DNA from: Burkholderiales bacterium
GTDB lineage: Bacteria; Pseudomonadota; Gammaproteobacteria; Burkholderiales; Burkholderiaceae_C
Reading direction: 5' to 3'
DNA length: 64,000 nt
NCBI GenBank assembly: GCA_025360385.1
Contig: JANYCG010000004.1
Location: 884-64,883, forward strand
Part shown: positions 10,068 to 10,953 of the stretch, piece by piece
Layout of the letters: the number at the start of each line of letters is the position of its first letter
Position numbering within the stretch: the first letter of the stretch is position 1
Notes under the pieces: generated by a model
What the model was told of the DNA's origin: nothing
The model's input: the letters and a program-made list of their open reading frames with translations, nothing else
The model's database searches: none
Program-made: the position numbers and the translations under genes

Positions 10068-10167
10068 GCCGCTCAGACGGGATAACCCTGAGTCGGTATT
10101 TTTTACAGTTTTCAATGAAATTTTGTTGCCACAAAAATTTATTCAATGAATTCAATAACTTGGTTTT

Positions 10168-10184
10168 CGGTACGAATATTGCTT
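10168..10184 (+). promoter_or_regulatory. sigma-54 (-24/-12) type promoter candidate upstream of the PEP-CTERM gene
   Basis: cGGTACGaataTTGCTt compared with consensus TGGCACG-N4-TTGCW, with GG and GC correctly spaced. It lies about 70 nt before ATG 10255. TTCAATGAA/TTCAATAA repeats occur upstream at 10111, 10142 and 10151. Confidence 0.45.
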
Positions 10185-10254
10185 AATGCCTGGTATCAGG
10201 CTGTCACCAGCTCGATTAAAGTTTGACGCCATTTTTTAAACTCAGGACGCCATC

Positions 10255-10953
10255 ATGACCCACTCTACAGAGCGCCAAGCTCGCGCACCCTTCCCAACCT
10301 GGCTTAAGTCACTTGGCCTCGGCTGGTCCATGCTGCTGGCTGTCGCTGCGGCGCAGGCCATGCCGTTGCTCAATGTCTCTGGTTTTGGCGACAAGGGCTA
10401 CATCATCGCGCCTGACCAGGCTGCGGCGGTCTCTTTCCACTTTGACCAGGCTTTCAGCGGGGTGTCCATCACGGCCGACTTGACCAAAATCAACCCATCC
10501 ACCGACGGTGGCGTGTTTCTGGTTTCGAACCTGGGCCCCAGCGCAACTCTTGGCGACGTCATTGCCACGCAAAACTTCAGCGCCATCAGTTTTATCGGCA
10601 GTGGCACGGTGCTGTTCAGCGGCCTGAACTTGGGGCTGGGCGATTACGCCATCGTGGTGGCCAACAGCCAAAGCACGGCCGGCAATGTGCTTTGGAACGG
10701 CAGCAGCGCCGCCAGCGTGTCGCATGCGGTTGGCGTGGTCGACGGCATTGATTTCTTTTCTAGCAACACTTCCGGCTTTCTATTCAATTCTGCATTCACT
10801 CCCGTTCTGGGAAGCGACCGACAGGCCTTCTTCACTGTCACGGCTGCGGACACAGTGGTGACACAGGTGCCGGAGCCCGCAAGCCTGCTGTTGCTGGTTG
10901 TCGGCCTGGTCGGCCTGGCCAGCACCCGAGTCCGCAAACAACACCTGCGTTAA
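10255..10953 (+). CDS. PEP-CTERM sorting-domain secreted protein
   Basis: N-terminal signal peptide (...MLLAVAAAQA). The C-terminus VPEPASLLLLVVGLVGLASTRVRKQ has the PEP motif, a TM helix and a basic cluster. Confidence 0.8.
   Translation: MTHSTERQARAPFPTWLKSLGLGWSMLLAVAAAQAMPLLNVSGFGDKGYIIAPDQAAAVSFHFDQAFSGVSITADLTKINPSTDGGVFLVSNLGPSATLGDVIATQNFSAISFIGSGTVLFSGLNLGLGDYAIVVANSQSTAGNVLWNGSSAASVSHAVGVVDGIDFFSSNTSGFLFNSAFTPVLGSDRQAFFTVTAADTVVTQVPEPASLLLLVVGLVGLASTRVRKQHLR

Follow-up and report, generated by a model that had tools for sequence, protein, structure and literature searches.

The window analyzed here, a 64,000-nucleotide (nt) stretch of contig JANYCG010000004.1 from a Burkholderiales bacterium (assembly GCA_025360385.1), carries on its + strand three tandem genes of the P47/OrfX type followed by a gene for a protein with a PEP-CTERM tail, the sorting signal of exosortase substrates. 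The trio consists of a P47-like gene (5641-6906), whose best solved relative is P47 (6EKT, 80 bits), and two OrfX3-like genes (6980-8509 and 8523-10067) matching OrfX3 (8FBD) over their full length, with a score of 200 bits. The three open reading frames (ORFs) all match the Pfam family Clostridium_P47 (PF06597), with E-values of 1.6e-22, 2.2e-64 and 4.4e-79, respectively. An AT-rich gap of 187 nt separates the end of the third ORF at 10067 from the ATG at 10255, which is preceded at a distance of 7 nt by AGGA and opens the coding sequence (10255..10953, + strand) of a protein of 232 amino acids (aa). An initial annotation of the window had described the P47-like trio, the gap, the PEP-CTERM ORF, a -24/-12 element at 10168-10184 and TTCAAT-type repeats at 10111, 10142 and 10151, and all of these were found as claimed. 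What is new at this locus is that an exosortase substrate is paired with P47/OrfX3-like genes in a conserved manner, while the sigma-54 promoter of the PEP-CTERM gene is of an already known kind. The initial annotation was aware of no described link between an exosortase substrate and TULIP/P47 proteins, and indeed no paper in the searched literature joins PEP-CTERM with OrfX or botulinum, or exosortase with TULIP.

The 232-aa protein has the two terminal signals of its class. It passes the cut-offs of both PF07589 (25.0 vs. 20.7 bits) and TIGR02595 (23.6 vs. 16 bits), the latter over aa 205-229 (10867-10941), and in an alignment of 12 homologues the PEP motif is invariant and followed by a hydrophobic helix and a basic end. 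By inspection, aa 1-35 (10255-10359) form a putative Sec-type signal peptide with a basic n-region, the hydrophobic core SLGLGWSMLLAVAAA and a predicted cleavage between AQA and M after residue 35; the junction of xQA with xPLL is kept among homologues. The intervening region (aa ~36-200, 10360-10854) is modeled as a beta-sandwich domain. A first model was poor (predicted local distance difference test, pLDDT, of 66); run on 27 sequences, AlphaFold2 gave a confident all-beta jelly roll (pLDDT 94.2; predicted template modeling score, pTM, 0.90). No Pfam family matched the domain in 27 members, NCBIfam has no model for it either, and the whole protein remains below every cut-off of the named NCBIfam PEP-CTERM passenger families, XDP1 among them, the matches to which fall mainly in the tail (best scores 29.8 vs. 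65 bits for NF038129 and 18.7 vs. 80 bits for PepA, NF033554). A Foldseek comparison of the jelly-roll model with the PDB returned only generic matches with TM-scores of at most 0.54, i.e., phage baseplate or fibre domains, capsid jelly rolls, CBM6/36 and GOLD/PHR domains, and a profile search of PDB sequences with the domain found nothing (best E-value 0.39, unrelated lectins). A specific fold assignment was thus dropped despite the high pLDDT. An OrfX1-like or TULIP identity of the protein was likewise rejected, given the lack of a PF06597 match and of any OrfX/P47 entry in the Foldseek or PDB profile searches. As modeled, the fold of the domain is one typical of binding modules.

A word-indexed search retrieved 12 close relatives of the 232-aa protein, all of them tailed, a profile search retrieved 24, and an exhaustive hidden Markov model search of 1.84 billion representatives yielded 1038 clusters at E≤1e-3 and 33 at E≤1e-30. 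Most members are 200-240 aa long and comprise a signal peptide, the domain and a sorting tail. Strong members (at least 120 bits) with contig context occupy 14 distinct loci (the window, L006, L009, L010, L011, L012, L021, L031, L046, L047, L048, L051, L052, and L053), and a P47-like gene with two OrfX3-like genes was found at all 14, down to 32% identity. The link to P47/TULIP genes suspected in the initial annotation is a conserved neighborhood. Nine of these loci (L006, L009, L010, L046, L047, L048, L051, L052, and L053) were retrieved by the PEP-CTERM protein alone and are for that reason not biased toward P47; P47-family genes lie within 3 kb in 9/9 of them. A metagenome scan returned one locus, L046, which was again trio-linked. 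Four gene orders are represented. In the window, L006, L011, L012, L051, L052, and L053, the trio is followed by a promoter of the type described below (the PEP-CTERM box) and then by the gene; in L010 and L046, the gene follows the trio after a gap of ~30 nt that lacks the box and holds only a ribosome-binding site; in L009 and L047, the gene precedes the trio; and in L048, L031, and L021, it lies 1.7-2.6 kb away from it.

The PEP-CTERM gene could instead be an independent single-gene operon of the PrsR regulon that merely shares an accessory island with the P47 trio, in which case its adjacency would have no functional meaning. Such an arrangement would agree with the gene having its own promoter and with the report that PEP-CTERM genes form operons of their own in more than 65% of cases (PMC1569441). 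It would also agree with the distribution of the domain, which is carried by only 6 of the 34 evaluable P47 loci of species genomes, and, in the converse direction, with three weaker relatives of the domain (51-66 bits), near which no P47 gene was found. However, chance adjacency accounts poorly for a trio present at 14/14 strong-member loci in four gene orders and at identities of 32-100%, for the ~30-nt distance to the last OrfX3-like gene in L010 and L046, and for the correlated divergence of the two partners, the identity of each domain to the window copy tracking that of each P47 paralogue (Spearman 0.80-0.83, p<0.001). We thus hold adjacency without functional meaning to be unlikely. Since only 6/34 evaluable P47 loci carry it, the domain is better described as an optional partner; any match to it was found in only 1/301 genomes of the same family and 2/401 of the phylum. 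Judged from these sequences, the subfamily is a rare, optional, but tightly linked partner of P47 loci.

The C-terminus, unlike the gene neighborhood of the domain, is variable. Tailed members end in a PEP-CTERM, a PEPxxWA-CTERM (39.3 vs. 35 bits) or a VPLPG-type signal. In a metagenome-assembled genome (MAG) of Polyangiales, the domain has no PEP tail, is fused to Cys-rich repeats and is encoded directly 3′ of a P47 gene, and in a “Planctomycetota” MAG, the domain, again without PEP tail, is fused to another domain at the P47 locus. Tail type and host exosortase agree in the Rhodoferax MAGs and Marinicaulis, which have exosortases, and in the tail-less Polyangiales genome, in which none was found; they disagree in a PEP-tailed Nitrospirota MAG, in which none was found, and in the tail-less “Planctomycetota” MAG, which has one. 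This pattern, in which a single passenger is combined with various sorting signals or fused parts at its C-terminus depending on the host, resembles the “choice-of-anchor” domains of the NCBIfam concept, although no such model was matched (best NF041539, 16 vs. 30 bits, in one homologue only).

The 187-nt gap contains the cis-elements of a sigma-54 promoter, as the initial annotation had proposed from the -24/-12 element. This element, cGGTACGaataTTGCTt (10168..10184, + strand; GG at 10169-10170 and GC at 10181-10182), has a predicted start near 10194 and agrees with TGGCACG-N4-TTGCW at 10/12 positions with the correct GG-N10-GC spacing. By itself such a match is weak evidence, because 672 sites of this quality occur on both strands of the genome (~0.015 expected per gap and strand); among them, however, those located in AT-rich gaps concentrate 5′ of PEP-CTERM genes. 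The upstream regions of the PEP-CTERM genes of the genome also have in common an element TGTCG-N7-T(T/G/A)ACA, 60-96 nt 5′ of the -24 element. In the window it corresponds to motif 1, AGTCGGTATTTTTTACA (10091..10107, + strand), a predicted PrsR enhancer site that fits the 17-nt motif of Haft et al. (2006) and that the initial annotation had missed. The core GTCG-N6-TTTACA occurs once in the window (0.04 expected). In the published description, the PEP-CTERM box consists of a 17-nt motif with TTTACA as its last bases, then a spacer with a mean of 62.8 nt (32-92 nt) and a 17-nt sigma-54 motif located at a mean of 71 nt from the start codon (PMC1569441); it precedes 99 of 167 proteobacterial PEP-CTERM genes and has been ascribed to PrsR (Haft et al., 2006; PMC1569441). 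The box of the window has a 60-nt spacer after motif 1 and 70 nt between the -24/-12 element and the ATG. Position matrices were built from the 13 other boxes of the genome, leaving out the site of the window, and scanned genome-wide on both strands. The composite site of the window scores 37.4 bits (19.8 for motif 1 and 17.6 for the -24/-12 element) and ranks 12th of ~8.2 million positions; all higher-ranking sites are training sites, and two further training sites score lower than it. It is the only untrained composite above 30 bits in the genome, the best site that is neither a training site nor ahead of a PEP-CTERM gene reaching 26.7 bits. No sigma-70-like promoter was predicted in the gap.

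The third conserved element lies in the spacer. The consensus of the integration host factor (IHF) is WATCAA-N4-TTR, and the tandem TTCAAT repeats together make a site of this type, ATTCAATAACTTG (10150..10162, + strand). The related pattern WWTCAW-N4-TTR is found in either orientation 18-43 nt 5′ of the -24 element in 12/14 boxes of the genome, compared with an average of 0.44 in shuffled spacers, where the count did not exceed 4. When the seven orthologous gaps (window, L006, L011, L012, L051, L052, and L053; proteins 61-82% identical) are aligned, they conserve only GTCG..TTTACA, AATGAATTCAAT..TT and GG..TGC. The box spacers of the genome cluster at 60-63, 76, 84-86, 96, and ~143-149 nt (contigs C49, C333, C306, C119, C158, C52, C196, C1, C140, C282, C295, C299, and C323), i.e., in steps of roughly one helical turn, which fits face-of-helix looping. 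Neither an IHF site nor spacer phasing was seen described in Haft et al. (2006) or in PMC9850573, the latter of which does not mention IHF.

The initial annotation had drawn attention to the TTCAAT(G/A)A repeats upstream of the -24/-12 element. They are present, two of them in tandem, but as enhancer they were displaced by motif 1 together with the IHF-type site on the grounds of matrix score, occurrence in 12/14 boxes and conservation in orthologues. A related possibility, that the repeats form an operator or enhancer for PrsR or for the CadC-like regulator encoded upstream of the trio, could explain why three copies fall inside 48 nt, out of 6 in the window (2.9 expected), and why TTTCA-type repeats are also present in the upstream region of the trio. 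It is difficult to reconcile with the copy at 10111 not being conserved in the orthologous gaps, and with the WWTCAW-N4-TTR pattern occurring in 12/14 boxes, which lie on other contigs and lack a CadC-like neighbor. Moreover, PrsR already has its site in motif 1. We regard an operator function of the repeats as quite improbable, the tandem pair being best read as a predicted IHF site.

The sigma-54 match might also be unused, the gene being read through from the trio promoter under control of the CadC-like regulator, as seems to be the case in its box-less relatives. Indeed, no box was found at the distant loci L009, L010, L046, L047, L048, L021, L031, and L013, and the lack of a box at L010, L046, L009, and L047 speaks for such a scheme. 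In the gap of the window, no terminator was predicted, and the -24 element is imperfect, CGGTAC differing from TGGCAC at two positions. Set against this are the composite score, which, with the site left out of training, ranks among the other boxes of the genome, the three short islands conserved across seven orthologues in an otherwise diverged gap, and a spacer length and ATG distance at the published means. Exclusive read-through therefore has, in our judgment, little probability. The predicted promoter of the window is a textbook PEP-CTERM box. It is also an ordinary one, because the order of enhancer, IHF site and -24/-12 element is usual for sigma-54 promoters and has been published for this regulon; for instance, in Aquincola, a PEP-CTERM gene whose transcription start was mapped depends on RpoN (PMC9850573).

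The machinery on which such a protein and such a promoter would depend is encoded in the genome (4.12 Mb in 337 contigs, 98% complete), which was searched for exosortase and prsK/prsR as the initial annotation had suggested. A single exosortase was found, an XrtA-EpsI fusion (TIGR03109, 351.6 vs. a cut-off of 208 bits) whose gene is flanked by those of the XrtA-system glycosyltransferase and amidotransferase; the objection that the genome might have no exosortase hence fails. PrsK (710.5 bits), PrsR (734.3 bits) and PrsT (459.5 bits) are encoded in tandem and, like RpoN (391.1 bits), exceed their cut-offs, and an IHF-alpha-like gene scores slightly below its own (119.5 vs. 120.25 bits). The genome contains 19 PEP-CTERM tails, and the box precedes 13 of the 17 PEP-CTERM genes that could be evaluated. 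By virtue of its PrsR/IHF/sigma-54 box, the gene of the window would share its PrsK/PrsR regulon with 12 or more other PEP-CTERM genes of the genome. A further strong box (44.9 bits; C52:18583-18700, + strand) lies 3′ of prsK-prsR-prsT and ahead of the gene for a protein of 221 aa, which lacks a PEP-CTERM tail and begins with a twin-arginine-like signal, RRRLLRAGLAATPVLLAV; the PrsR regulon may thus have a member outside the PEP-CTERM class.

On its 3′ side, the PEP-CTERM gene is followed on the + strand by a 115-aa ORF (11002-11349), a GT34-like glycosyltransferase gene (11374-12228) and a gene for an alpha/beta-hydrolase-fold protein (12225-13010). These genes are spaced by a 48-nt gap, a 24-nt gap and a 4-nt overlap with no + strand terminator predicted between them, and all three are probably co-transcribed with it. 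On the other side of the trio, a divergent gene (3844..5502, - strand) codes for a regulator with a CadC/OmpR-type winged helix, TolB_N and TPR domains, as identified with Pfam. The intergenic region between this gene and the trio (5503-5640) was found to contain no PEP-CTERM box or sigma-54 site, so that the trio and the PEP-CTERM gene appear to be under different regulators. Phased TTTCA(T/C) repeats, again with no sigma-54 site, lie in this region and in its counterpart at L006 (3205-3377). Clustering of flanking ORFs identified the GT34-like transferase at 9 P47 loci, the alpha/beta-hydrolase at 7 and the CadC-like regulator at 6, these recurrent neighbors spanning Proteobacteria, Bacteroidota and Nitrospirota. 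The transferase and the hydrolase also recur beside P47 clusters at L017, L018, L021, L026, and L028, which include loci with no PEP-CTERM protein, and their partnership with Gram-negative P47 clusters may be more general than that of the PEP-CTERM protein.

The proteins of the trio have no signal peptide. Near their C-terminus, both OrfX3-like proteins have a strongly hydrophobic segment of ~55 aa (aa ~398-461 of the product of 6980-8509 and aa ~411-465 of that of 8523-10067), exemplified by ALKIILEIAAAVIAVVLTVVTDGAFLIVALIILSLLVGLLEALPALIA, which resembles a transmembrane helical hairpin, and the P47-like protein has a shorter hydrophobic segment (aa 352-379). The hairpin could place the OrfX3-like proteins at the inner membrane, where the helix of the unprocessed PEP-CTERM protein would also reside. 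The whole block, i.e., a hydrolase gene, an ArsR gene, the CadC-like regulator, the trio, the PEP-CTERM gene, the GT34-like transferase and the hydrolase, is bracketed by diverged direct repeats (635-882 and 13107-13355; 76-84% identical and 12.47 kb apart), an arrangement that would fit an acquired island. The module of L051 adjoins an ISL3 transposase as well as a PIN/PhdYeFM pair. Among the called genes of the block of the window, none was identified as a toxin gene. The closest relatives of the locus come from MAGs of Rhodoferax sp.

Taken jointly, these observations are best explained, and in our view probably so, by an XrtA-sorted jelly-roll protein expressed from a PrsR/IHF/sigma-54 promoter and constituting a conserved fourth component of an orfX-p47-type module of Gram-negative bacteria. 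Based on what is known of its family, the 232-aa protein would be exported by the Sec pathway, kept in the inner membrane by its PEP-CTERM tail until XrtA cleaves the latter, and then passed on to the cell surface or the exopolysaccharide (EPS) layer. Its transcription would start near 10194, activated by PrsR bound at motif 1 (10091-10107) while IHF, at 10150-10162, would bend the 60-nt spacer, and the same promoter would probably also drive the 115-aa ORF, the GT34-like transferase and the hydrolase. In the Rhodoferax-type lineage, the gene would have gained its own PEP-CTERM box, while in other lineages it would be co-transcribed with the trio. The module itself may act at the cell surface or in the EPS layer, a location that the initial annotation had also suggested, and a speculative best guess for the 232-aa protein is that it serves, exposed at the cell surface, as binding or anchoring partner of a TULIP complex handling lipids or glycolipids.

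Several points weigh against this explanation. Besides the scarcity of the domain among P47 loci and the two deviations in the -24 element, contact of the trio with an exported protein is not obvious, because the P47/OrfX3-like proteins have no signal peptide, and no ligand can be named for the domain, because its structural matches are generic. No exosortase was found in the MAG of the PEP-tailed homologue of L021, a MAG whose completeness is not established. Finally, read-through from the trio may contribute to expression of the gene, because no terminator separates the two.

Compared with known PEP-CTERM/XrtA systems (PMC1569441; Aquincola and Zoogloea pepA, PMC9850573), the window shares the PEP motif, helix, basic tail and signal peptide of the protein as well as the large upstream gap, motif 1, a ~60-nt spacer, GG-N10-GC, ~70 nt to the start codon and the presence of the system genes. 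Unlike in these systems, the gene forms part of a P47/OrfX-like module and neither stands alone nor belongs to an EPS locus, and the passenger domain matches no named PEP-CTERM family. The locus resembles the Gram-negative orfX-p47 clusters (PMC7020563) in its tandem paralogues of P47-like and OrfX3/OrfX-T-like type, the lack of orfX1 and of signal peptides, and its location in an accessory region. Those clusters lacking orfX1 are reported to adjoin toxin-type genes, i.e., RHS, autotransporter and insecticidal toxin genes, and their survey does not mention exosortase (Nowakowska et al., 2019; PMC7020563); the recurrent neighbors here are, by contrast, the exosortase-sorted beta-sandwich protein, the GT34-like transferase, the alpha/beta-hydrolase and the CadC-like regulator. 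Like OrfX1, which partners OrfX3 in clostridial clusters (8FBD; PMC13030710), the 232-aa protein is small and encoded next to OrfX3-type genes. Since the Gram-negative clusters have no orfX1, a substitute partner is conceivable, but OrfX1 is a cytoplasmic protein of TULIP fold and the protein of the window a predicted exported all-beta jelly roll with a sorting tail, so that the analogy is speculative.

The pairing matters for the study of both families. Because its route of export and sorting and its regulator are defined, a conserved partner that is not a toxin provides experimental handles on OrfX/P47 in harmless environmental bacteria, namely localization, XrtA-dependent processing, control by PrsR and RpoN, and interaction tests. 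A family of PEP-CTERM passengers that neither Pfam nor NCBIfam models is defined; it comprises ~1,000 clusters (50% identity), ~36 of which fall in the range in which P47 linkage was observed. The description of the PEP-CTERM box is extended by an IHF site and helical spacer phasing. We know of no established cellular role of OrfX/P47 proteins outside toxin complexes and, to our knowledge, Gram-negative orfX-p47 clusters have so far been discussed only together with neighboring toxin genes. A tentative and rather doubtful proposal is that P47/OrfX3-like proteins of Gram-negative bacteria and an exosortase-sorted surface protein, often with a GT34-like transferase and an alpha/beta-hydrolase, might work as a module of the envelope in which a lipid or glycolipid is handled or the EPS layer remodeled, a toxin-independent and possibly ancestral role of OrfX/P47. 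The PEP-CTERM protein would then be the extracytoplasmic binding partner, tied in Rhodoferax-type hosts to floc/EPS regulation through PrsR and sigma-54.

Elsewhere in the window, at ~52530-52550 on the - strand (C78 minus-strand 28572), the sequence TGGCTTGATTGTTGCT also agrees with the sigma-54 consensus at 10/12 positions and has no motif 1. An ammonium-transporter-like ORF of 400 aa begins 72 nt 3′ of it. The element is probably an NtrC-type promoter of the ordinary kind and provides the scan with an internal positive control.

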